64,000 nt of DNA. Source: Terriglobia bacterium (GTDB lineage: Bacteria > Acidobacteriota > Terriglobia > 20CM-2-55-15). Of the stretch, positions 25,583-38,601 are shown piece by piece (the stretch's first letter is position 1; the number at the start of each line of letters is the position of its first letter). The position numbers and the translations under genes were made by a program. The DNA is taken from NCBI GenBank assembly GCA_965262675.1, contig OZ253554.1, positions 2,132,640 to 2,196,639 on the forward strand. The letters are read 5' to 3'. Below the pieces are notes generated by a model, which was not told where the DNA came from, did not search any database, and saw only the letters and a list, made by a program, of their open reading frames with translations.

Positions 25583-25738
25583 CGTGGGGAAGCGGTGCAT
25601 GTGGAGCAAGCCGATTGGAAACCTCCTGAAGCTCGGGTACAGTGCCAGCGTCCGGCAACGTCTGTGCAGCGGCTGCCGAACACGCGAGGGCGACGGTGAA
25701 CAGAACAACGAACATGGATCGAGTTAGCATGGATTCAG
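25583..25738 (-). pseudogene. truncated tandem duplicate of the 5' end (signal-peptide region) of gene 25858..26835
   Basis: Minus-strand translation MLTRSMFVVLFTVALACSAAAAQTLPDAGTVPELQEV..* parallels MLNRSISVVLFAVAAVCSAAATEPLSGSVTALEIQEV of the downstream gene. The DNA segments 25700-25750 and 26800-26850 are near-identical. Confidence 0.5.
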
Positions 25739-25857
25739 TCTTCGGTGAAGATTCTCCTGTTTCGGATATTTTTTCTCACGGCGGGACAGGTAGGAGCAAT
25801 TAGACTCATGCAATCCACATCGGACCGGCCCCATGCGTCCTCCCCTCAGCCAACCCG

Positions 25858-26835
25858 CTACTGGATCGGTTCTTCCACGAAAAACTGGACGTCAGCGTCG
25901 AAGCGTTCGAAAGACGCGAACTCCTGGATGATGCGCTCGATCGGGAAGAAATCTCCCTCGCGGGATGAGCGGATGCGGAATCTGGGGGTGTATTCGAAAC
26001 GTTCCGGAGTGAAGATACCGTAGCTGCTTGGAGCATACTGGTACTCGAACTGGACCAACTGCGGATCCTCGGAAAACCCTGGCCGGCCTTCCGCAAAATA
26101 TCCACCCTCGTCCCGCCACAATTCTCCAGACGACGCCTCCAGCCAAAGCCGCCCGCGCACGTGGATGCGGTCCAGGTCGGGAAAGTCTATGAAAGGGGAA
26201 ATAAGTCCGCTAATAAATCCCCGCCGGGAAAACTGGATGGGGCGAATCCGCCTGTAGTCCACCAGGATAAAGTCCATGCCGTCAATCGTTTCGCGGCCCG
26301 CGATCACCGCGTCGAACGCTTCCTGGTCACTATAAATGCCCTGAGCCGATGACGAGAGCATGCCCCTTACGTTTCCAGGTGCCAGACCGAATTTCCGGCT
26401 TTCGCGGTCGATCAACTCTCGCTCCTCCGACGCGGAGCTTGCGTTCGCAAGCTCGCTTGCGAGGGCCTGCAATCGCATCTCCCGGTCCCCGGCCTCGCGC
26501 CCGTCGACTGAAAGAACGTGTCGATACTCCATCCCCCCTGGGCTGTGGGTGAACCGATGAACCATGATTTGGCTGACAAAGACCCGCCGTCCGGTCACGC
26601 GGCCCTCTTCGTCGTAGGTGAGAATCGTGGTGGTCTCTTCCGTCGTCAGATCCTGAATCACTTCCGCATACCGCCGGGCACTGGCGGTGGCCCGCGCGAG
26701 CAAGTCGTCGAGGTCGACGCCGTCGACCTCTTGAATCTCAAGCGCCGTGACCGAACCCGACAGCGGCTCCGTAGCGGCCGCCGAACACACGGCGGCGACG
26801 GCGAACAGAACGACGGAAATGGATCGATTTAGCAT
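25858..26835 (-). CDS. secreted hypothetical protein
   Basis: Signal peptide MLNRSISVVLFAVAAVCSAAA. ~325 aa from the internal ATG of ORF 25858..27021. Confidence 0.5.
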   Translation of the reverse strand: MLNRSISVVLFAVAAVCSAAATEPLSGSVTALEIQEVDGVDLDDLLARATASARRYAEVIQDLTTEETTTILTYDEEGRVTGRRVFVSQIMVHRFTHSPGGMEYRHVLSVDGREAGDREMRLQALASELANASSASEERELIDRESRKFGLAPGNVRGMLSSSAQGIYSDQEAFDAVIAGRETIDGMDFILVDYRRIRPIQFSRRGFISGLISPFIDFPDLDRIHVRGRLWLEASSGELWRDEGGYFAEGRPGFSEDPQLVQFEYQYAPSSYGIFTPERFEYTPRFRIRSSREGDFFPIERIIQEFASFERFDADVQFFVEEPIQ

Positions 26836-27147
26836 GGATTTAGTCTTCAGTGTATTGCCCCCGATTCCGTGCAGAGTAAACTCACGATAGTCAAACCGCC
26901 GAGACGACAGCAAGACGTTTTCGCGCCGGCGCCGGCAGCACACGGTGTGTCCGGTGCTCGTAGCAAATGAAATGTCCGGTGCGAAAGGCACCGGTTGAAC
27001 CCATATTCTGCCGGTCGGCATGAAATCTCAAAAGAAGACCGGCGGTCCGATCTTACCGCCGGTAGACCTTATCGGACTTTTCCGCTTGGCGGCAGGGCGA
27101 ATTACTTTACGTTCTGGGTGGCGGTATGTCCCGGCCGCGCCCCTTGA

Positions 27148-27552
27148 TCACTGGTTTGAAGGAGCGGTCGAGAGGAATTCTTCAAGCGTTGCCTTGAGCT
27201 TGTCCTGATTTCGAGTTTCGCATTCCCATATCACGCATACGCGCCAGCCTGCTTCTTCGAGGAGACCGATGTTGATACGGTCTCTTTCGACGTTCCTGTC
27301 CAGTTTCTTGTTCCAATACTCCACGTTCGAGTTGGGCCGATTGCGTCCAGCGCGGCATGTGTGCCCATGCCAGAAGCAGCCGTGAACGAAGATGATCTTG
27401 CGTTGGGACGCAAACACCAGGTCGGGATGTCCAGGCAACTTGGGAGAGTGAAGACGATAGCGATATCCGAGCGCAAACGCCATCCGCCGTACCGCCAGTT
27501 CAGGGCGGGTATCCTTCGATTTCACCGCGGCCATTGTCTGGCTTCGAGTCAT
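27148..27552 (-). CDS. vsr: very-short-patch repair endonuclease
   Basis: Diagnostic FVHGCFWHGH motif and WRVCVIWECE C-terminal region. Confidence 0.9.
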   Translation of the reverse strand: MTRSQTMAAVKSKDTRPELAVRRMAFALGYRYRLHSPKLPGHPDLVFASQRKIIFVHGCFWHGHTCRAGRNRPNSNVEYWNKKLDRNVERDRINIGLLEEAGWRVCVIWECETRNQDKLKATLEEFLSTAPSNQ

Positions 27553-27590
27553 GTTGCTATGGATGTCAGGTCCCCGAAATACGGCCTTGG

Positions 27591-27820
27591 CCCGCCTTTC
27601 TCACGGGTTTTCGTCGCGAAGAGCCGGAGACGCCGTCAGGGCAAGGCGCGCGCCCGGAGGGCACCGGAGGCGTACTTGAAAGTACGTCGAGGAGCCCGAC
27701 CGCGCTTGATCCGGCGCGAGGAACGCGCCGCTACGCGCCCGGCGCGAGGAACGCGCCGTGGAACGCGGCACTGGCGGATGTATACGGCTCTGCAGCAGAC
27801 AACTCGTGAGAAATGCGGGT
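27591..27820 (+). repeat. MITE-like repeat, copy B (longest copy), inserted between dcm and vsr
   Basis: Starts cccgcctttctcacgggttttcgtcgcgaagag and ends gacaactcgtgagaaatgcgggtt. Same internal direct repeats as copy A. Confidence 0.7.
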
Positions 27821-27947
27821 TTGTCTGGCAAAATGCGCGAGAAGCGCAAGGCGAAGCTCCTGGCTGTCTTTGACGTTCAGGAAATGGTCCAGAAGATCGC
27901 CGACGGCATGAGCACCTACGACGTCTGTAATTGTCTTCGCCGCCTTC

Positions 27948-29144
27948 TTACGATAGCGAATAATCGAAATCGGGTCGTTTTTGGGCATCGGCGTCATCCA
28001 GAGTGCCTTCCAGTAGAGGCTTTAGATATTCGCGTGCTATCCACGCAACCACAGGTACGCACACGCCATCGCCAAAAGCCGATAGCGCTTGATTTTCGCG
28101 GCATCCATCCAACAGAAACGCCGGAGCCCCCTGGAGTCGGGCGTACTCTCTCGGCGTCATCCACCGAACCCGCATCTGTCCCCGGCCGGCCTCGACGAGC
28201 GCTTGTCTGCCCGATCCGCCCTTTGCCGTTCTCAGACATCCGCTGATTCCATCGGAACGAATTTCCCATACGGCTCGCCCTTTTCTCGTGCGTCTGAAAG
28301 TCGTCGCCCACGTAAGACCCCCGGCAGACCGTAACCCCGCGAGTCGCCGCGACTGAATAGGAGAGAGAGTATCGACAAAACGGGATATTCGTTCGTCGTC
28401 CCACCAGCGCGGATGGTTTGACGGAATGCGTTCGATGCAATCCGCAAGAGCGATCGTTGTTGCTGGGGGATCGGGCAGCGCCACCGATTGCATGTCGAGC
28501 CTGTCGTGGTCTCGTACAAAGGCTCGAATCCAGTTCGGTCGCGTCCACGACACCGCGTCATCGCCTGCCGACACCCGGGTTGTCGACCCGACAATGAACA
28601 GCCTCGGGCGGCTTTGCGGCATGAACCAGCGAGCGTCGACCGTAAAGACATCGCAAACGTAGCCCAGGACGTTTAGTTGTTCAATGGCCGCCGCAAGGTC
28701 CCGGCCTTCCCGCGAAGTTGCAAATCCGGTTACGTTTTCCAACAGCACGGTCGGCGGCCGCCGATCTCTCATTTCGCCCAGGATGCGGGCAAACTCCCAG
28801 AACATGCCCGATTCCTTTCCATCGAGTCCAGCGCGATGTCCGGCCAGGGACAGATCGGTACATGGGAACGAAGCCGTCGCCAATTCGATGTCCGGCACAT
28901 CGGCGCCTTCGATATTGCGTATGTCACCGAGGACAAAATCCTCTGAGCCGAAATTGGCGGCATACAAATCCCGCTTGCCCGGTTCGATGTCGTTCGCGAA
29001 CACGACTTCGAATCCATCTTGCTCCAATGCGAGCCGGACGAGGCCGATTCCCGCGAAAAACTCGGCAGCCCTGAAAGATCGATTCTCCATCCTGAGGAGA
29101 ATATAGCTTCCCAATGGTACAAATCGGGTCCGTTGCGCCTGCAT
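27948..29144 (-). CDS. dcm: DNA cytosine-5 methyltransferase
   Basis: Motif I FAGIGL, motif IV PCTDLS (PC dipeptide), motif VI ENV. Alternative start at 29090 (MENRSFRAAEFFAGIGL). Confidence 0.85.
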   Translation of the reverse strand: MQAQRTRFVPLGSYILLRMENRSFRAAEFFAGIGLVRLALEQDGFEVVFANDIEPGKRDLYAANFGSEDFVLGDIRNIEGADVPDIELATASFPCTDLSLAGHRAGLDGKESGMFWEFARILGEMRDRRPPTVLLENVTGFATSREGRDLAAAIEQLNVLGYVCDVFTVDARWFMPQSRPRLFIVGSTTRVSAGDDAVSWTRPNWIRAFVRDHDRLDMQSVALPDPPATTIALADCIERIPSNHPRWWDDERISRFVDTLSPIQSRRLAGLRSAGGLTWATTFRRTRKGRAVWEIRSDGISGCLRTAKGGSGRQALVEAGRGQMRVRWMTPREYARLQGAPAFLLDGCRENQALSAFGDGVCVPVVAWIAREYLKPLLEGTLDDADAQKRPDFDYSLS

Positions 29145-29540
29145 CCATCGCGGTAATGGGTGCCGTCGAGAAATATATGGGGAAGCGGCGGAATTTCACC
29201 GGGCATCGCTTCCGGGTTGAGGGATACTGTGCGGTTACTATACGACCGGATGAAGCGACGATTCGCCAATACATCCGGAACCGGGAAGCCGACGAAAAGC
29301 GGCTGGAACAACTTACCCCGAGAGGTCTTTGGCCCTCTTCATCGAACCGATCCTATTCGAGGGCCTTCATCATACCGCCTGCTATCGGGGCGGTAGCTTA
29401 TTTGGAACAACTGCGAGAAAATGCTGGAGAATCGTTTCATGGTTGAGACCTCTTCAGGTTGGACTTCTCGTCATTGAAAAACCAATCCTGCGAGGTTGGG
29501 CTCAACGTCGCAATTTTCAAACCCTTATCGGACAAGAGCG

Positions 29541-32057
29541 ATGCCCGACCCTCCCATACAGGTGGACTACAACCACGATTTGACATTGCTTGAAGACGCG
29601 CTGTTCGCCGTCGACAGGCCGGGCGACTACTACGTCGCGGAACGGCTCGAACTACCGCCGCCGACCGTGAAAGTCGACGGGATCGGCACTCTGTCGTTTC
29701 CCGTGCCGGCGTTCCAGGTGGATCGGTTGATCGAGCGCGCCACCCGCGCACCTTACGGGCGGGGCGAGGAGACAATCATCGACACGACCGTGCGTCAGGT
29801 TTGGCAGATTTCGGCCGACAAGGTGTCGGTTGGCGGGAAGTTCTGGGAGCGATCGTTCGAGACGATTCTTGGGTCCGTCGCCGGCGGTCTGGGATGCGAG
29901 CGAGCGCAGGTTTCCGCCGACCTGTACAAACTCCTGGTATACGAACCCGGAGGATTCTTCAAACCGCACCGGGACACGGAAAAGTCCGAAGGGATGTTCG
30001 GCACGCTCGTTCTTGTGCTGCCCTCCGAACACAGCGGTGGAGAATTGGTGATTCGTCACGGAAACCGCGAGGCCAGAGTGGATCTGAGTGGGTCGGATCT
30101 GGGGGAACTGGCGATTGCCGCATTGTATGCGGATTGCGAGCACCAAGTGTTACCGCTCACCTCGGGTCATCGGATCTGTCTCGTCTACAACTTGGTCCAG
30201 CCCTCCGTTCGAGGGCAGAACAGGCTGCCGGAGGCGCCCTTGTACGAGTCGGAGTCGTCTCGTGCGGCGGCGGCGCTTGAAAAAGCCCTGGCGGCAAAAG
30301 ATGGACCCTTGAAGATCGTCTGGCTCCTGGAACACCAATACACCCCGGCGGGGCTTTCGTTCGTTGCGCTGAAGAATGCCGACGCCGCCCGAACGAAAGT
30401 TCTGACCCAGGCGGCGTCGCGCGCGGGATGCGTCGCGCACCTCGGCATCGTGCATATCGAGGAATTCGGAATAGCGCTGCCGATCTATGACCCCGATGCC
30501 GACCGTGGATATGCGAGATACGGCGGCGACTACTATGACGACAATGACGACGAAGAGTATTCCGGCGAAGACGAAGATGACGCCGAGGATTTCGAGGTTG
30601 TGGAAGTAACCGATGGCAAGCAATTCGTTGACGAATGGATCGATTCGGAGAACCGCAGTGTGTCATTCGGGCCAATTCCTCTAAAGGCTGGAGAAATCGT
30701 TCCGGCCGGAGCCCTGGATGAAGAACCCGCCGACCGGCAACGCGTGACGGAGGCGACCGGGAACGAAGGCGCCAGTTTCGAGCGTTCCTACCGGCGTGGG
30801 GCGGTCGTCATATGGCATCGCCGCAGATATCCCGATGTGCTGTTGCAAGCCGGTGTCGGCGCGGCGGTCCCGTATTTGACGGAACAGGTGGCCGCCTGCG
30901 AAGCCGAACCGGCAAACGCCCCGCTCAGGCGCGAGACGTTGGCTGTCGTCGGGCGAATGATCGACCGCTGGCAATCCGAACTCGAAGCGCACGGCTGGCG
31001 GCGGGGTTACGGACTCAAGTCCGCGGCCAACCCTTCAGAAATGCTCGATCTTCTCATCCGTCTGGGAGACGCACGATCGATCGAGAGTTTCGTCGGCCGC
31101 ATCGTCAACGAAGCTTACGATGGCGGCGAAAACGCGGCTCTGACCTCGGCGATGGCCATGCTGACCCCGTCGCGGGCCAGCGATCTGTTGTCGGGCGTCG
31201 TGACGAAGAAAATGCGCGGGTTGCACATTCCGTGTATCGATCTATTGAGCCATCTCGTTCGTTTCCATGACGCCGGCGGGCTAACGCCGGCCGCTCGATG
31301 GAAGACGGCTCTGGTTGAGGTCGCCGAGTGCCTGGTCGATGGACTCCGGGACGTCGCGCGGCCCTTGCCAACGCCTGATTTCTACGGATACGAGGAAGGC
31401 GTATGGGCTCAACCGAAGATGAAGCCGCCCGTGCGGTCCAGTCCGGATCCGGACATGGCTCTGGCGGATCTGCTGGGCTCGCTCCGTCGCTTGGAGCCTG
31501 AACTGGCCGGTCGAGCCGCGTCGATTGTCGCCGAGAGCATCGATGCATTCGATCCGGTCAAGGTTGTAGTCCCGGCCCTGGTTCTGTTGGTCGAGCGGGA
31601 GGGCGTGCGAGCGAGTCGCGGCGCGGGTTTCTCCGGCTTGTGGCGGCATGCCGCCCGGTTTCTTCTGGATCGCAGTGAACAACCGCCGGAACGACCCAAG
31701 GACTGGCGGCAAGACGTGACAGTGGGCTGCTCCTGTCCCGATTGCCGTGAGCTCAAAAGGTTTGCCCGCGACCCCGAGGAGCGGATACATCGCTTCGCGG
31801 TCCGCAAGGATCGCCGCCGTCACTTACACGATGCGATCAAGCAGGGGGACTTCGACATGACGCACGTCACCGAGCATAAAGGGTCGCCCCACACGCTGGT
31901 GTGTACCAAGACTCGTCGCGGATTCGAACGACGGCTAGCCCAGTATCGGAACGACCTTGCGGCAATGGCGGCGCTCGTCGGGATGCCTCCCCACGATGTC
32001 GAGCCGGTCAGCGTGAAACTGGCGGCCGCTTTGGATCGCGGCGAGCGATATGAATAA
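29541..32057 (+). CDS. large (~838 aa) fusion protein: N-terminal 2OG-Fe(II) oxygenase (P4H-like) domain + long helical C-terminal region of unknown function
   Basis: HxD...H...R triad: KPHRDTEK ... CEHQVLPLTSGHRICLVYNL. Acidic low-complexity stretch DYYDDNDDEEYSGEDEDDAEDFEVVE. C-terminal Cys cluster GCSCPDC. Preferred start MPDPPIQVDYNHD at 29541 inside ORF 29496..32057. Confidence 0.6.
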   Translation: MPDPPIQVDYNHDLTLLEDALFAVDRPGDYYVAERLELPPPTVKVDGIGTLSFPVPAFQVDRLIERATRAPYGRGEETIIDTTVRQVWQISADKVSVGGKFWERSFETILGSVAGGLGCERAQVSADLYKLLVYEPGGFFKPHRDTEKSEGMFGTLVLVLPSEHSGGELVIRHGNREARVDLSGSDLGELAIAALYADCEHQVLPLTSGHRICLVYNLVQPSVRGQNRLPEAPLYESESSRAAAALEKALAAKDGPLKIVWLLEHQYTPAGLSFVALKNADAARTKVLTQAASRAGCVAHLGIVHIEEFGIALPIYDPDADRGYARYGGDYYDDNDDEEYSGEDEDDAEDFEVVEVTDGKQFVDEWIDSENRSVSFGPIPLKAGEIVPAGALDEEPADRQRVTEATGNEGASFERSYRRGAVVIWHRRRYPDVLLQAGVGAAVPYLTEQVAACEAEPANAPLRRETLAVVGRMIDRWQSELEAHGWRRGYGLKSAANPSEMLDLLIRLGDARSIESFVGRIVNEAYDGGENAALTSAMAMLTPSRASDLLSGVVTKKMRGLHIPCIDLLSHLVRFHDAGGLTPAARWKTALVEVAECLVDGLRDVARPLPTPDFYGYEEGVWAQPKMKPPVRSSPDPDMALADLLGSLRRLEPELAGRAASIVAESIDAFDPVKVVVPALVLLVEREGVRASRGAGFSGLWRHAARFLLDRSEQPPERPKDWRQDVTVGCSCPDCRELKRFARDPEERIHRFAVRKDRRRHLHDAIKQGDFDMTHVTEHKGSPHTLVCTKTRRGFERRLAQYRNDLAAMAALVGMPPHDVEPVSVKLAAALDRGERYE

Positions 32058-32082
32058 CGCGATTCGACAGATTTAAAGTGAA

Positions 32083-32313
32083 ATGAGTTACCGGGACATA
32101 ATCACGATCGAAGCCGGCAAGCGCGGGGGAAAGCCCTGCATTCGCGGCCTTCGCATCACGGTGTACGACGTTCTCGACTACCTCGCTTCCGGGATGACCG
32201 AGTCAGAGATTCTTTCGGATTTTCCGGATCTCAATGCAGATGATATCCGTGCCTGCCTGCAATTCGCGGCAGACCGCGAGCGCAAGCTCGGCTCGCTTCC
32301 TCCCGGAGAATAG
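32083..32313 (+). CDS. DUF433 domain protein (antitoxin-like HTH)
   Basis: 76 aa, GKPCIRGLRITVYDVLDYLASGMTESEIL matches the conserved DUF433 core. The next gene starts 4 bp downstream. Confidence 0.7.
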   Translation: MSYRDIITIEAGKRGGKPCIRGLRITVYDVLDYLASGMTESEILSDFPDLNADDIRACLQFAADRERKLGSLPPGE

Positions 32314-32317
32314 CCTA

Positions 32318-33361
32318 ATGCTCTATAAGCTCTCTGATACCGGCCAAGGGCTTGGAAAACTTGAGCCTCTTTCCTTTTTAGAGGTTGCTGACCTGCAACG
32401 GACAGAGAAAGATCTCGAAAACCTTCTGGCTGATCATCTCTTGGATGTCCTATTTGAGGACGCAGCCCTCATGCCCATCTTTCAGGAACGTCAGCTTCAG
32501 GCTGAGGCCGATGTCTACGCTCTCAATAGGGCGGGGGAATTGGTAATCTTCGAGTTGAAACGTGGGGTGGCTTATGATGACGCCGTTCTGCAAGCCATTC
32601 GATACGCACAAGATGCAGGTCAGTGGCTCTACCCGGAATTACAACGCCGTTACGACATCTACCTGCAGAAGAAACGTATGTCAACTACAGATCTGCGGGA
32701 AGCACACAGGGAGGCCTTTCAACTTGAGAGTGCCCTTTCAGTATCCGATTTTAACTCTCGTCAGCACCTTTACATCGTGGGCAGCGCCGCGAATGAAGGC
32801 CTGATTGGTGCAATCGACTACTGGAAGACACAAGGTCTGTCTGTTCAGTTTCTCCCTTATCGGATCTATGAAATCCAAGGCCAACGGTATTTCGAGTTCT
32901 TCTCGTTTCCCTATGACCGTCATCGAAACCCAGCGACTATCAAGGGCGTGCTCTTTGATACAAACCGATCTTACGACGAAGATGCCATCTGGGAAATGAT
33001 GGAGAAAGCACGAGTGGCCGCATACGGTGATATCAAGCACGTGGTCGAGTATCTCAACTCAAGAGACATCGTATTCTATTGCCACAGGGGGGTTGGAGTC
33101 ATCGCTGCTGCAGAGGTAACTGGACCGCCAAGGACCGATGACGACAACGACGAAGAGTATCGCGATGTTAGATTTCTGACTCCGGTTCCGAGCCGTGACA
33201 AAGGCATCCAACAAGCGGGAGCAATGACGGCAGCGCAAGTGTCACAGGTAACAGGAAGGACTTTTTTCTGGGCGCGGACGATTAAAGTCCCTTACCTCGA
33301 TCCGAAAGAGACTCAGAAACTACTCGATGAGCTAAAACGTTTCCTTGCCAACCACACCTAA
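32318..33361 (+). CDS. putative nuclease: N-terminal PD-(D/E)xK restriction-endonuclease-like core + C-terminal EVE/PUA-like domain
   Basis: D...ELK motif in ADVYALNRAGELVIFELKRG. C-terminal NSRDIVFYCHRGVGVIAAAEVTGPP resembles the EVE consensus GD-V-FYHS....GIVGIAEV. GC content is visibly lower than the flanks. Confidence 0.5.
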   Translation: MLYKLSDTGQGLGKLEPLSFLEVADLQRTEKDLENLLADHLLDVLFEDAALMPIFQERQLQAEADVYALNRAGELVIFELKRGVAYDDAVLQAIRYAQDAGQWLYPELQRRYDIYLQKKRMSTTDLREAHREAFQLESALSVSDFNSRQHLYIVGSAANEGLIGAIDYWKTQGLSVQFLPYRIYEIQGQRYFEFFSFPYDRHRNPATIKGVLFDTNRSYDEDAIWEMMEKARVAAYGDIKHVVEYLNSRDIVFYCHRGVGVIAAAEVTGPPRTDDDNDEEYRDVRFLTPVPSRDKGIQQAGAMTAAQVSQVTGRTFFWARTIKVPYLDPKETQKLLDELKRFLANHT

Positions 33362-33640
33362 CCGCTGCAGGCGGCGGGTGGCGGCACAGTGTTTTGGTAG
33401 CTCCGGAGTCTCCGGGGTGAACTTTAAGCCACGGTCCGCAGCAACGGGACAGATGGAATCATTGAAAAGGGGATTATCCAGCAAACTAGCCAGCGGCCTT
33501 CGGCTTTCGCGGGCGCTTGACGATGCGCTTGGACGGGTCGGAAGGCTTGGCAGCCTTGAAAATCGCCTTGGCGATCTGTTGGGCCGTGGCGTGAATTTCA
33601 ATCAGGCGCTTGATCGGACGGCCTCGTTTCGGTTTTTCGT

Positions 33641-34246
33641 TCATATCGTCTCTCCCTTCGCTCTGTGCACCCCTATCGCCGTGAGAATAGCATCGGCACT
33701 GTCTACGCTGTCCTGATAGTGTGCTGCCCATGGGCGTCCGGGATGCAGCGTGTCCCAACGTGATCGTCGCTGATTGCGCCGTGTCCCTTGGTCATGGTTC
33801 CCGAAGCCGTCCACCACGACATTCCATATCGGGCGGTATTTTGAGATCAGAACTTGCTCTGTCAATCCGATCCACACCGGATCGAGAATGAGCCACCGGC
33901 AACGGAAGTGGGCCAGGTCCAGGTTATGCGCGTTTTTTATCGAGTCGGCGTGTTGCGACAGGCGACGATGCAAGACCGGGGCAGGCCGCCGCGAGACGGC
34001 TTGCCCTTGTCGCTTACCCGGGAGATCCGCCTTGCCGACGTAGATCGGGTCATCTTCGCCCATGTTGGCGTAGGCCGCGAAAGTACCGCCATAGTGGATT
34101 GTGTACACGCCGGCACCGTTGAACGCCTCGTCCGGCGGCAGATCGCATGGCGGATAGGTCATGAGCGCCCGCGCCGCGTTGCGGCCCAGTTCATCCACGC
34201 TAAGCGGGTTGTATTCTCGCCGGTGGTCATCGCCTAACGCTCGCAT
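33641..34246 (-). CDS. GIY-YIG restriction endonuclease, Eco29kI-like
   Basis: GVYTIHY ... IYVGKA (GIY...YIG with insertion) followed by a conserved R/E/N region (RLSQHADSI...NHDQG). Its start is overlapped by 13 bp of the upstream methyltransferase gene. Confidence 0.55.
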   Translation of the reverse strand: MRALGDDHRREYNPLSVDELGRNAARALMTYPPCDLPPDEAFNGAGVYTIHYGGTFAAYANMGEDDPIYVGKADLPGKRQGQAVSRRPAPVLHRRLSQHADSIKNAHNLDLAHFRCRWLILDPVWIGLTEQVLISKYRPIWNVVVDGFGNHDQGTRRNQRRSRWDTLHPGRPWAAHYQDSVDSADAILTAIGVHRAKGETI

Positions 34247-34893
34247 CGGTTACCGTTGCGGCAGACAATCCAGAAGCAATGCCGTTTTCTGGCATGGTGA
34301 GCATTTTTCCACTTCGTTGAAATCATCGGTCCGTTTCGCACCTTCACGATCAAATCACAGACAACGAATCCGGCATCCTCGGCCATCCTCATGAAGTCGC
34401 AATGCGCCCACTGCGACCGATGACAGTTCACCATGTCCGTAATCTTGGCAAGCAAGATGCCGTCCGTTTTCAGGACGCGCCGTGCCTGTTCGAGAAACGG
34501 TGGATATAGATAGCTCAGATTCCACCCATGCTCCTTGCCGCATGCAACCGTAGCTCCGAAATCCACATCGAACCGCTTCGCGCTCTTGTCCCTGCCTTGC
34601 GGCCCGACGTGCGGAGGATCATAAACCACCACTGCGAATGAATCCGCATCTACTCCGGGCATCTCGCGGTTATCCGCAAGGATATCCGGCGTATGACGCG
34701 GGTCGATGTCCATCGACACCACACGGCGCTCGGAACCGCTCCAAAACCGGCCTGAATTGTATGTCGCGTCCAGAATAGGGTCTGGCGGAATCACTGCGTA
34801 GAAACGCAGCATTTCTTCGATTAGATCGGGGTCCCGTCCGTCCCATACGCTGCTTATGGGATCGTAGGTGTCAGTCTGTAAAACCGTGCTCAT
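34234..34893 (-). CDS. small DNA methyltransferase (motif I-like ILDATYNSG, motif IV DPPH); partner of the Eco29kI-like REase
   Basis: FxGxG-like and VVVYDPPH motifs in N6A/N4C order. The likely ATG at 34893 overlaps the IS1595 transposase stop (ATGA). The longer ORF 34234..35076 runs into the IS. Confidence 0.55.
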   Translation of the reverse strand: MSTVLQTDTYDPISSVWDGRDPDLIEEMLRFYAVIPPDPILDATYNSGRFWSGSERRVVSMDIDPRHTPDILADNREMPGVDADSFAVVVYDPPHVGPQGRDKSAKRFDVDFGATVACGKEHGWNLSYLYPPFLEQARRVLKTDGILLAKITDMVNCHRSQWAHCDFMRMAEDAGFVVCDLIVKVRNGPMISTKWKNAHHARKRHCFWIVCRNGNRCER

Positions 34894-35831
34894 GCGACCA
34901 GATCCCGGTATCGCAACCGTTTCTGATCGAACCCACGGACGATTCTGGACATTTGCGCCAGCGTGTCGAGGCTGCGAATGTTCTGACGGCCTGCAAACTC
35001 GCTGACATAGCGTTGAAGGTGCTTGGCACTCAATTTGTGGAACGTTCCCTTGTGCGCACGTTTCAGCATGCTCCAAAAACTCTCGATCCCGTTCGTGTGC
35101 GCCATATCCCGGACGTATTCTCCAACGGAGTGTTTCACGGATTCATGCGACTTGGCAACGCCGTGGTAGGCGGTCGCTTCGTCGGTGTAGACCGTGGCTT
35201 CCGGGTCAGCGTTCTCCCGGACGAAACCCTGAAGCGTTTCGGCGTCCGTCTTCTCGACAACCTTCGCGCGGACTTGCTTCGTTCCCCGATCCTTCACACC
35301 CACAACAGCCGATTTGCCAACCCCGCCGCGTCCGGCCTTGAGCTTCTTGGATTCATGCTTGTTCTTTTCCAACCCGCCGATGTAGACCTCATCGGCTTCA
35401 ACGGGTCCGGCCATCAGTTCCGTACCGTCAACGAATCCTTCACGGATACGCTGGGCGAGATACCACGCGCTAGACTGCCTGATCTTCAAATCGCGGTGCA
35501 GCTTCATGCTGGACACGCTCTTGAGGCTCGTTGCAACGAGGTAGATCGCTATCGCCCATTCCTGATATCCGAGCTTGCTGGACTGCATGACCGTGCCCTT
35601 GCGGACGCTGAAGTGCTTCCGGCAATCCTTGCAGCGGTACGGCATTGGCTTGCGGTTTTTGCATGCCGAGTATCGAACCGATCCGCAGTCCGGGCAGGCG
35701 ATGCCGCTGTCCCACCGTTGCGCCTCGAACCACTGTTCGGCCTTCTCATCGTTGGGGAATATACGAAAGAGTTCGGTCAGGCTTAAGCCTTCCCTGTCGG
35801 TGCGTCCGGGTCCTGAATTATTCTCTGTCAT
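34890..35831 (-). CDS. IS1595-family transposase
   Basis: N-terminal zinc ribbon CPDCGSVRYSACKNRKPMPYRCKDCRKHFS and a DDE core typical of the IS1595/ISXO2 family. Confidence 0.85.
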   Translation of the reverse strand: MTENNSGPGRTDREGLSLTELFRIFPNDEKAEQWFEAQRWDSGIACPDCGSVRYSACKNRKPMPYRCKDCRKHFSVRKGTVMQSSKLGYQEWAIAIYLVATSLKSVSSMKLHRDLKIRQSSAWYLAQRIREGFVDGTELMAGPVEADEVYIGGLEKNKHESKKLKAGRGGVGKSAVVGVKDRGTKQVRAKVVEKTDAETLQGFVRENADPEATVYTDEATAYHGVAKSHESVKHSVGEYVRDMAHTNGIESFWSMLKRAHKGTFHKLSAKHLQRYVSEFAGRQNIRSLDTLAQMSRIVRGFDQKRLRYRDLVA

Positions 35832-35979: not shown

Positions 35980-37740
35980 TGAAATCATGGATTTTGACCC
36001 CTGAATGGAGAATCTTCGCGAGGCAGGGACACGATGAGAGAAGTTCAGAGACGGCAGTTCCATCTGGGTCAGGCGGCGATCGGGCAGATCTGGATCGACC
36101 CGAAGTCGCGGGACGACATTCCGGCGGTATTGAAGGGGCTGCAGCACATCTGGGGCGAGGAGGCGTTGCGCGCCCGGCTGTTTGCGCTGCTGGATGAGCA
36201 TATTCTGCCGGAGGCCGACCGCACGGTCGGGCGTCCGGGGATGGAATTGTGGCAGATCCTGGTGCTGGGGGTTCTGAAGCAGGGTCTGGGGTGCGACTTC
36301 GACCGCCTTCACGACCTGGCGAACCATCACGCGACGATACGCGCGTTCCTGGGTCACGGCGATTTCGTCGACCAGACGCGCTACGAGTACCAGACGGTGG
36401 TCGACAACGTGTCGTTGTTGACGCCGGAGTTGTTGACGGCGGTCGGACAACTGGTGGTGGAGAGTGGCCACAAGGTGGCCCGAAAAAAGCTTGGCGAGCC
36501 ATTGCGCGGGCGGTGTGACTCGTTCGTGGTCGAAACGGACGTGCATTACCCGACGGATGTCAGCCTGTTGTGGGACGCGATGCGGTGCGTGCTACGGGAG
36601 ACTGGGGAGGCGGCCGGGCAACACGCCGTGGGCGGATGGCGTCAGTGGCGGCATCTATCCAGGAAGGTCAGGAAGCTGTTCAACACGGTGCGCTCGACCC
36701 GGCGGGCGAAGCGGCGTCCGGAGCGGGTGGAGGCGTACCTGGAGCGCTGCCGCGCACTGGTCGCCCGGACCGCGGAGACCCTCGACCAACTGCGGGACAA
36801 CGGAGTCGAGGAAACCACCTGTCAATCAATCGAAGGCTTGATCGCTCATGCCCGGCGCCAAATCGGCCAGGTTGAACGCCGGCTCCTGCGAGGCGAGACG
36901 ATTCCTCACGCGGAGAAGGTTTTCTCGATCTTCCAGGAGCACACGCGCTGGATTTCGAAGGGCAAGGCGGGCACGCCGGTGGAACTGGGAGTGCCGGTCG
37001 CTCTCATCGAGGACCAGCATCAATTCATCCTGCACCACCGGATCCTGTGGGAGGGCGAGGACGTGGACGTGGCGGCGCCGATGGTCCGGGAAACCCAGGC
37101 GCGGTATCCCGATCTGCGGGCGTGCAGCTTCGACCGGGGCTTTCACAGTCCTGAAAACCGGATCCATCTCGACGCGCTCCTCGACCTCAACGCGCTGCCG
37201 GGAAAGGGGTATCGGTCCCGAGTCGACCGGGAACGCGAAGCGGAGGAATCCTTCGCCGCCGCGCGGCGCGCGCATCCTGCGATTGAATCGGCCATCAATG
37301 GATTGGAGCATCGAGGGCTCAACCGTGTCCGCACTCACGGCGCCGACGGCTTCGCCCGCGCCGTCGCCCTGTCGGTACTGGCCGCCAACCTGCATCGCAT
37401 CGGATCGATCCTGCAGAAGCGCCAGCGCAAACGACCACGCGTCGCCTGACCCACCGGTCCTCCCGGAACATGCCCGATTCGGGGCCGTCGCAAGACGGCA
37501 AGCCGCCCCATGCCCGGACGCCCGAATTTTGGGCCGATTTCTTGCCGATCACTCCCCACGAGTCGTCAACCGCTCCCGTTGCGGTTCGATTTATAGTGAA
37601 TGAACGTCGCTCGTTCCCCCGTCGCTCCCGAATCGACATCCGCGAGAGGGGTTTTCTGGCGGACACTAGCTACAGTGAGCCAAGGACAGTTGGTCAAGGG
37701 CCATTGCTGGCACCGGAACTGGGCGGACACTGTGAAGCGG
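35980..37740 (+). mobile_element. IS4/IS1380-like insertion sequence adjacent to the IS1595 element (boundaries approximate)
   Basis: The sequence becomes visibly AT-richer at ~37740, marking the junction with the truncated downstream gene. Confidence 0.45.
36034..37449 (+). CDS. DDE transposase (IS4/IS1380-like)
   Basis: 471 aa with a DDE_Tnp_1-like core (VVETDVHYPTD...). Lies in the same low-GC-end context as the IS1595 element. Confidence 0.7.
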   Translation: MREVQRRQFHLGQAAIGQIWIDPKSRDDIPAVLKGLQHIWGEEALRARLFALLDEHILPEADRTVGRPGMELWQILVLGVLKQGLGCDFDRLHDLANHHATIRAFLGHGDFVDQTRYEYQTVVDNVSLLTPELLTAVGQLVVESGHKVARKKLGEPLRGRCDSFVVETDVHYPTDVSLLWDAMRCVLRETGEAAGQHAVGGWRQWRHLSRKVRKLFNTVRSTRRAKRRPERVEAYLERCRALVARTAETLDQLRDNGVEETTCQSIEGLIAHARRQIGQVERRLLRGETIPHAEKVFSIFQEHTRWISKGKAGTPVELGVPVALIEDQHQFILHHRILWEGEDVDVAAPMVRETQARYPDLRACSFDRGFHSPENRIHLDALLDLNALPGKGYRSRVDREREAEESFAAARRAHPAIESAINGLEHRGLNRVRTHGADGFARAVALSVLAANLHRIGSILQKRQRKRPRVA

Positions 37741-38601
37741 GGTTTTCGTTTTTTGAACTTCTGTTTTGAGACAGTTGAGGATTTCGCTGAGGAGCAATGG
37801 AAACGAGGTAGCGGTGCGGGCGGATTTGTCGCCACGAATGCAAGCTTGGCGGCGCTAATAATCGTTATTGATGAGATTTTGTCACACTTGGTCGCGACGG
37901 GAGAACTAAGGCGGAGTGGTCGGACGGACGACGAACTTCGCGACGCCGTACGACCGTATCTGGCGTATATTGGTCACTTTGTTGCATCGCTCGATCACGC
38001 CGCAATCTCAAGAATGCGAAGCTTTGGCGGTGGCGGTGCAAAGATTCGGATCGCGCGGGAATATCAGAACGCGATTAACGATGAGGACGACGGCTTCAAT
38101 CCCGAAGGGTTTCAACAGTGGAAGAAGGAAAGTACGCTAGTTTTCAATGCGAAAGTGAAGCCACTTTGCGAGAAGCTAAACGGGGCTCTTCGTGATTACG
38201 TCAGGAAGAGGATGAAGGAAGTTCACGGTGAGAAGAAATGGATTGAGTCCCTTCCTACGGAGGTCGCAACCAAGACGTTTGAAAGGAGGGCTCTGGAGGG
38301 CTACAAGGAGTCTCAGGAGAACTATATTGATCTCGCTGATTACGAGAAGATTATCGACAAGAACAGCGGCGAGGTGTTTGACATAGCGGTCTTCACAACT
38401 CCGGGTTTCAAGGGGGGAAGTAACAAGAAGAAGTTGTCCTGGTTCGCACCGCTGATTCGAGTCCGGAACAAGACCGCCCATCCTGAGCGTGATCCAGTCA
38501 CTGAGGAGGAGTATGAGACCATTCGGATCCTTCATGATTGGCTGGCACCCCGTTTGGGTTCGTCTGACGTATCCCAGAAATCAGGACTGACTCAAGGGTG
38601 A
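37600..38601 (+). pseudogene. 5'-truncated gene for a HEPN-domain (Swt1-like RNxxxH) protein, disrupted by the IS insertion
   Basis: Only the part from ~37740 onward is AT-richer native sequence. C-terminal SWFAPLIRVRNKTAHPE carries an Rx4-6H HEPN motif. The upstream 140 nt of the ORF is IS-derived. Confidence 0.45.

Follow-up and report, generated by a model that had tools for sequence, protein, structure and literature searches.

The 64,000-nucleotide stretch of Terriglobia bacterium DNA analyzed here (contig OZ253554.1; hereafter the window) contains three co-oriented genes between a divergent Dcm-like cytosine methyltransferase gene and an Eco29kI-like restriction-modification (R-M) pair, which raises the question of whether the three work together as one system. 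On the forward strand they encode an 838-residue 2-oxoglutarate (2OG)-Fe(II) oxygenase (29541..32057), a 76-residue DUF433 protein (32083..32313) and a 347-residue predicted nuclease (32318..33361), with intergenic gaps of 25 nt and 4 nt, respectively. An initial annotation, made from the sequence alone, had proposed a module that both generates and senses DNA modification. The open reading frames (ORFs), strands and flanking genes that it described were confirmed, as was the 4-bp gap in front of the nuclease gene; the module itself was not. Our analysis makes it probable that the three genes are functionally independent and make the interval a mosaic within a variable island of defence and mobile elements, and that the nuclease is a predicted solitary type IV-like restriction endonuclease.

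Co-occurrence in unrelated genomes is the only feature that would define a three-gene system here, and it fails. One genome per species was scanned for the nuclease, yielding 80 loci with a homologue. None of them carries the oxygenase, a match to the window Dcm or Vsr (the repair endonuclease paired with Dcm), or the Eco29kI pair within 10 kb of the nuclease gene. Likewise, neither a nuclease homologue nor a match to the window Dcm was found in any of 82 oxygenase loci. When 83 nuclease loci were scanned with a purpose-built DUF433 hidden Markov model, a single one, L166, had a DUF433 gene no more than 1.5 kb from the nuclease, and it is 99% identical to the window. The gene-neighbourhood comparison that the initial annotation had suggested thus found the three genes together only in near-identical relatives, the outcome that it had itself named as speaking against its proposal.

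The 347-residue protein, searched as a single sequence against Pfam, NCBIfam and PDB sequences, gave nothing above threshold, and assignment of its fold needed a profile of 58 homologues together with structure prediction. The consensus of these homologues begins MLYKL, which backs the start used here; because the family starts at this point, a longer ORF of 375 residues beginning at 32234 was ruled out as the nuclease gene. The N-terminal half (approximately residues 1-195; 32318..32902, forward strand) is predicted to form a NucS/RecB-like PD-(D/E)xK domain. The family profile matches P. abyssi NucS in the PDB (1.4e-4), with D65, E79-L-K81 and Q92...Y96 aligned to the active-site motifs of NucS. 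Residues D65, E79, K81, Q92 and Y96 are invariant across the 58 homologues, and the catalytic motif D-ExK-QxxxY is intact, as in modification-dependent restriction endonucleases. The PADLOC defence-candidate profiles PDC-S11 match residues 12-193 (E 1.4e-15), a match that spans only positions 23-179 of the 358 in the profile.

The C-terminal half (approximately residues 200-347; 32915..33361, forward strand) is predicted to be an EVE/YTH-like PUA-fold domain that reads modified bases. Its strands and helices follow the order b-a-b-a-b-b-b-b, which is the signature of EVE domains according to Bell et al. (PMC7641849). Foldseek ranked EVE proteins, YTH domains and NucS/EndoMS at the top for the nuclease model, which is also structurally similar to VcaM4I, AspBHI, MspJI, McrB-N and THYN1. 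A word-indexed protein search with the C-terminal domain returned only gene fragments that carry no domain information. An exhaustive HMMER search with residues 200-347 retrieved only 184 representative proteins, which fall into three groups: the ~340-residue family itself, stand-alone domains of ~130-160 residues, and proteins of 445-533 residues with the domain at the C-terminus. One protein of the third group, P0382, reaches the Pfam EVE cut-off and provides a transitive sequence link between the nuclease C-terminal domain and EVE. Four others (P0297, P0305, P0409 and P0377) have N-terminal parts that gave weak HEPN matches, a weak PDDEXK_4 match or a strong AAA_25 match, and this variety of partners suggests a small reader family that has been shuffled among different N-terminal domains. 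On the basis of the profile and active-site match, the Foldseek ranking, the order of C-terminal elements and the link through P0382, the modelled protein is assigned as a fusion of a PD-(D/E)xK nuclease with an EVE-like reader, in agreement with the initial annotation. A domain of the PUA superfamily (EVE/YTH/SRA/ASCH) is thus predicted in the same polypeptide as the nuclease, as expected of a modification-dependent enzyme.

The nuclease gene is solitary and mobile. Homologues at the 80 loci are 45-79% identical, come from archaea as well as from many phyla of bacteria, and have variable neighbours; among 83 nuclease loci no conserved neighbour was found, a pattern that fits single-gene function without an obligatory cognate methyltransferase. 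Of the two methylases in the window, one is part of the Dcm-Vsr pair and the other of the Eco29kI pair, and neither is present near the other nuclease loci. The recurrent neighbours are instead type I R-M genes. In seven of the 80 loci (L061, L064, L066, L067, L068, L069 and L075) hsdR adjoins the nuclease gene, its start lying 8-148 bp downstream in six of them and ~1.1 kb downstream in L066. An hsdM gene is found upstream of the nuclease in six of the seven, the exception being L066, where it was not detected, and hsdS was detected in two of those six. A position beside hsdR in type I R-M operons is known for other accessory defence genes. A WYL regulator stands beside the nuclease in about five other loci. 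The closest homologues lie on a conjugative element (L163; 89% identical) and between housekeeping genes (L164; 85% identical).

We propose that the EVE/YTH-like domain would bind a flipped-out modified base, and that the NucS/RecB-like domain, licensed by the reader, would then cut the DNA nearby, the enzyme acting without a partner gene. Its target would be a modification that the host does not make, such as 5-hydroxymethylcytosine or a hypermodified base, or else a base set in another sequence context, because the host encodes a Dcm-type 5-methylcytosine (m5C) methylase and an amino-methylase, and because homologues reside in type I (N6-methyladenine, m6A) R-M operons.

Comparison with close relatives places the origin of the gene in the window at base-pair resolution. 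Nucleotide identity of ~90% to L163 and L164 is confined to 32304-33413 (1.1 kb), which delimits a horizontally acquired single-gene cassette. It consists of the nuclease gene, preceded by 14 bp that hold the ribosome-binding site and followed by 52 bp that include a hairpin. The initial annotation had described DUF433 and the nuclease as a low-GC, acquired pair; this holds for the nuclease (GC 50.4%, GC at third codon positions 52.6%), whereas DUF433 (58.0%) is close to the window (60.7%). The oxygenase gene has a GC of 62.0%. A second relative, L165, is 96% identical over 25621-32305 and carries Vsr, Dcm, oxygenase and DUF433 followed by a DUF5615 gene (PF18480, 2.3e-32) that overlaps DUF433 at GTGA. 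Homology between L165 and the window ends at 32305, and the left breakpoint of the cassette falls at the final codons of DUF433. The ancestral junction reads ...CTTCCTCCCG followed by AGTGAAGCTCC..., and the window junction reads ...CTTCCTCCCG followed by GAGAATAGCCTAATG.... A tblastn search of the 64-kb window for DUF5615 found none. Since L165 has DUF5615 at the same site, homology ends at 32305 and the window lacks this gene, the alignments indicate that the nuclease cassette replaced the DUF5615 toxin precisely at the DUF433 stop codon. The adjacency of DUF433 and the nuclease is a recent replacement, because the 96%-identical L165 keeps the DUF433-DUF5615 pair at this exact site. Judged by its sequence context, the window DUF433 protein (PF04255, 3.5e-24), which the initial annotation rightly called canonical, is an antitoxin-type protein orphaned by the loss of its DUF5615 toxin partner; the pairing with DUF5615 is preserved in L165 and L166. 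In the proposed course of events the nuclease would have arrived as the 1.1-kb cassette, displaced DUF5615 and orphaned DUF433.

That the nuclease cassette is an integron cassette with attC was considered and rejected, since the conserved 52 bp downstream are far shorter than an attC site. These 52 bp form a short GC hairpin, which appears terminator-like because a T-run follows it in L163 and L164. A transposon with terminal inverted repeats was also considered and rejected; an 8-bp inverted match (CCCGGAGA and TCTCCGGG, at 32302-32309 and 33409-33416) lies exactly at both cassette ends, is all that the window junctions offer and is insufficient to claim a mobility mechanism. The match could be fortuitous, or the replacement could have made use of it as microhomology; ends resembling those of transposons or integrons were not recognised. 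A scan for promoter and terminator consensus sequences did not rise above background; it yielded no promoter for either the DUF433 or the nuclease gene. The window cassette lacks ~85 bp of upstream sequence common to L163 and L164, and for this reason the nuclease is probably transcribed by read-through from the upstream oxygenase/DUF433 unit.

The L166 locus is 99% identical to the window over 27894-33468 and shares its gene order through the nuclease; besides this, L166 has an intact second copy of the DUF433-DUF5615 pair with overlapping genes. Past the nuclease, L166 (7333-14171) diverges, with SIR2_2, a DUF87 ATPase and type I R-M genes, and the window from 33469 continues with the Eco29kI pair and insertion sequence (IS) elements. 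Because the two carry different defence genes there, the site downstream of the nuclease is a variable defence hotspot.

The start of the 838-residue oxygenase ORF is backed by P0121 (838 residues, 100% identical), and its catalytic core matches Pfam 2OG-FeII_Oxy_3 (PF13640) at residues 130-217 (3.4e-8). The HxD...H...R core that the initial annotation had recognised is borne out: all of 59 homologues keep H143, D145, H201 and R211, which provide the HxD...H iron triad and the 2OG-binding basic residue within a double-stranded beta-helix of the prolyl-hydroxylase-like type. A structural model (predicted local distance difference test, pLDDT, 86) resolves this core at approximately residues 1-230, an alpha/beta domain at 236-426, helical repeats at 427-712 and a small alpha/beta domain at 733-838. 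The ~550 residues beyond the core had been described as helical with an acidic tract and a cysteine cluster. Tract and cluster are present, the former as a disordered loop (324-348) inside the first alpha/beta domain and the latter in a small Cys/His-bearing domain in which C730 is invariant and C732, C735 and H763 are nearly invariant among the 59 homologues; the region is not simply helical, since it comprises two alpha/beta domains besides the helical repeats. Profile searches supported the folds proposed for the oxygenase, DUF433 and the nuclease and gave no Pfam identity for this C-terminal region; among the 59 members, the ~600 non-core residues had no Pfam match. The architecture, which had seemed unassignable and unusual, is standard for a large, uncharacterized family of more than 2,600 sequence clusters of ~820 residues that align end to end at 47-62% identity.

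The annotated neighbourhoods of the oxygenase homologues vary from locus to locus, and mobile and defence genes predominate in them. They include toxin-antitoxin pairs (ParE, PIN, PemK, MNT/HEPN, DUF4160/DUF2442 and DUF433), integrases, transposases and, in one case, a Wadjet (JetABCD-type) cluster. Two neighbours recur: a ~292-residue protein without Pfam match, usually immediately downstream, in ~19 loci (e.g., L106:6078-6956), and an AEP-TOTE/DEAD/DUF559 helicase-nuclease in ~9 loci (e.g., L167:8669-11518). Both are absent from the window. Synteny of Dcm with the oxygenase is limited to the close relatives L165 and L166. The core is closest to prolyl hydroxylases and not to TET, and a TET/JBP-type core was not the best match by sequence or by structure. 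Given this evidence from core, family and neighbourhood, a TET-like role of the oxygenase coupled to Dcm is not supported, and the oxygenase has no conserved link to Dcm, DUF433 or the nuclease. We also entertain, as a speculative and rather unlikely extension, that the ~820-residue family is an undescribed conflict or defence family whose members would hydroxylate a host or invader protein or, less likely, nucleic acid; a lesser variant of the same idea is that the toxin-to-nuclease swap made a DUF433-controlled restriction gene.

These data allow the alternatives to be weighed. The layout that drew attention to the locus, with co-oriented genes at 25-nt and 4-nt spacing, would suit a single system in which the oxygenase oxidises Dcm-made 5-methylcytosine in a TET-like manner, the nuclease senses the product or foreign modified DNA, and DUF433 regulates, and the order Dcm-oxygenase-DUF433-nuclease does recur in L166. 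However, the 99% DNA identity makes L166 the same lineage as the window, the 96%-identical L165 has DUF5615 where the window has the nuclease, the nuclease cassette has its own GC and boundaries, and the empty counts at the 80 nuclease loci and the 82 oxygenase loci leave this reading extremely unlikely. A narrower proposal takes the toxin replacement as productive, making DUF433 and the nuclease a functional hybrid pair in which DUF433 represses a shared promoter or directly restrains the nuclease, as an addiction-like or regulated defence unit. The placement of the cassette exactly at the DUF433 stop with a 4-nt gap, its lack of the ~85 bp present upstream in L163 and L164, and the retention of the arrangement in two sampled genomes (the window and L166) are all compatible with such coupling. 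Beyond L166, however, no nuclease homologue among the 83 loci has DUF433 within 1.5 kb, and because the other homologues lack a nearby DUF433, the nuclease should need no such partner; transcriptional coupling is inference only, and neutralisation of an unrelated nuclease by DUF433 at the protein level is unsupported. We therefore regard the hybrid pair as unlikely.

A third possibility is that the 347-residue protein serves in housekeeping DNA repair as a relative of NucS/EndoMS, a mismatch or damaged-base endonuclease, given that the N-terminal half matches NucS/EndoMS best in both structure and profile searches and that UniRef labels one homologue 'DUF91 domain-containing protein'. Yet the NCBIfam NucS model NF003270 matches residues 25-99 only, that is, the nuclease core alone, at 27.9 bits against a cut-off of 216; in Pfam, NucS_C stayed below threshold and NucS_N was not matched. 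The domain order is reversed, with an EVE-like domain in place of the NucS N-terminal domain, and patchy distribution across phyla and archaea at 45-79% identity, low GC, cassette-like transfer, and the presence of the gene within type I R-M operons and, in one case, on a conjugative element all speak against a repair function, which is very unlikely. The preferred reading, three independent genes with a solitary type IV-like nuclease, has its own difficulties. Pfam EVE remains below threshold on the window nuclease itself, and the EVE-like fold rests on an AlphaFold2 model (pLDDT 81, predicted template-modelling score 0.58); the ligand of this domain could be RNA or an unmodified structure. 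Two DNA methyltransferases near the nuclease would be hazardous for an enzyme dependent on m5C or on N4-methylcytosine/m6A, and this proximity is explained only by the assumption of a target that the host does not make. On the side of the oxygenase, AlkB-like nucleic-acid oxidases score only slightly below prolyl hydroxylases; because the core is prolyl-4-hydroxylase-like, a protein hydroxylase is more likely by analogy than a DNA-base oxidase.

The combination of a PUA-superfamily reader with a nuclease is an established class of modification-dependent restriction enzymes (PMC6765204, PMC7897488, PMC7641849), and fusions of EVE/YTH/DCD-like domains to PD-(D/E)xK nucleases, together with an association of these fusions with type I R-M, have been mentioned in a general way (PMC7641849). 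This class includes VcaM4I and TspA15I (EVE-HNH), MspJI and AspBHI (SRA-like plus PD-(D/E)xK), YenY4I, and the prokaryotic YTH/DCD-PD-(D/E)xK fusions. Like type IV enzymes, the window nuclease combines an EVE/YTH-like reader with a predicted metal-dependent nuclease, is solitary, has no cognate methylase, and is associated with defence islands and type I R-M. Unlike most characterized type IV enzymes, in which the reader comes first, it has the NucS/RecB-like domain N-terminal to the reader, and the reader is a divergent subfamily of 184 HMMER-linked representatives that falls below the Pfam EVE threshold. In contrast to NucS/EndoMS, it lacks the NucS N-terminal domain, shows the reversed architecture with an EVE-like domain, and is mobile and patchy rather than vertically inherited; from its sequence it is not a NucS orthologue. 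The nuclease matches only the first half of the ~358-residue PDC-S11 profiles, and its C-terminal reader appears different from theirs. END-nuclease (PMC12191111) was considered as a match and rejected as a different family, consisting of PLD and an inactive EndoIII. Our literature search found no paper that names or describes the window nuclease family and no characterized member.

For the remaining two genes the comparison is as follows. The DUF433 protein is canonical with respect to the DUF433-DUF5615 (PIN-like) pairs of toxin-antitoxin type, except that the place of DUF5615 is taken by an unrelated nuclease cassette. Compared with prolyl-4-hydroxylase/PHD/PKHD-type enzymes (YbiX, PiuC) and the two-domain Tpa1/OGFOD1, the oxygenase adds ~600 residues without a Pfam match, and it occurs in variable regions with many toxin-antitoxin and defence genes, not in housekeeping operons.

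The flanking genes complete the picture of the island. Upstream, on the reverse strand, lie the genes for the Vsr very-short-patch repair endonuclease (27148..27552; PF03852, 6.3e-28) and the Dcm-like C5-cytosine DNA methyltransferase (27948..29144; PF00145, 4.2e-47), the latter divergent from the oxygenase gene; Vsr is part of the Dcm-Vsr pair and separate from the oxygenase, DUF433 and nuclease genes. Downstream, also on the reverse strand, is a separate type II R-M pair consisting of an Eco29kI-family restriction endonuclease (33641..34246; PF09517, 3.4e-51) and its partner, a DNA amino-methyltransferase with a DPPH motif and a weak PF01555 match (34234..35076; 0.0064). The methyltransferase ORF overlaps the 3' end of an IS1595-family transposase gene (34890-35831, reverse strand) by 187 bp, and this overlap suggests that the true start is probably an internal Met near 34893. 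With the start at that position, the IS1595 element would sit directly upstream of the Eco29kI R-M operon, and it may affect expression of the operon. A second, DDE transposase gene (36034-37449, forward strand) follows. Just past both transposase genes is a gene of low GC (52.7%) for a 333-residue protein with a Swt1-like HEPN domain (37600-38601, forward strand; HEPN_Swt1-like, Pfam 2.5e-7), which probably represents a further defence or toxin gene belonging to this island. No tRNA gene marking the island borders was found.

The locus therefore reveals no new multi-gene system. What it defines is a widespread, uncharacterized family of predicted type IV restriction enzymes in which, unusually, a NucS-like nuclease precedes a divergent EVE-like reader; the family travels as a single-gene cassette and is found repeatedly within operons of type I R-M. 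Enzymes of this kind are of use for understanding the hypermodification of phage DNA and as reagents for mapping modified bases. The analysis also flags a very large family of 2OG oxygenases in the same kind of neighbourhood, which is the most interesting loose end. Finally, the window provides a case, resolved to the base pair, in which a defence cassette took the place of the toxin in a toxin-antitoxin pair, and this swap illustrates how toxin-antitoxin loci serve as landing sites in defence islands.

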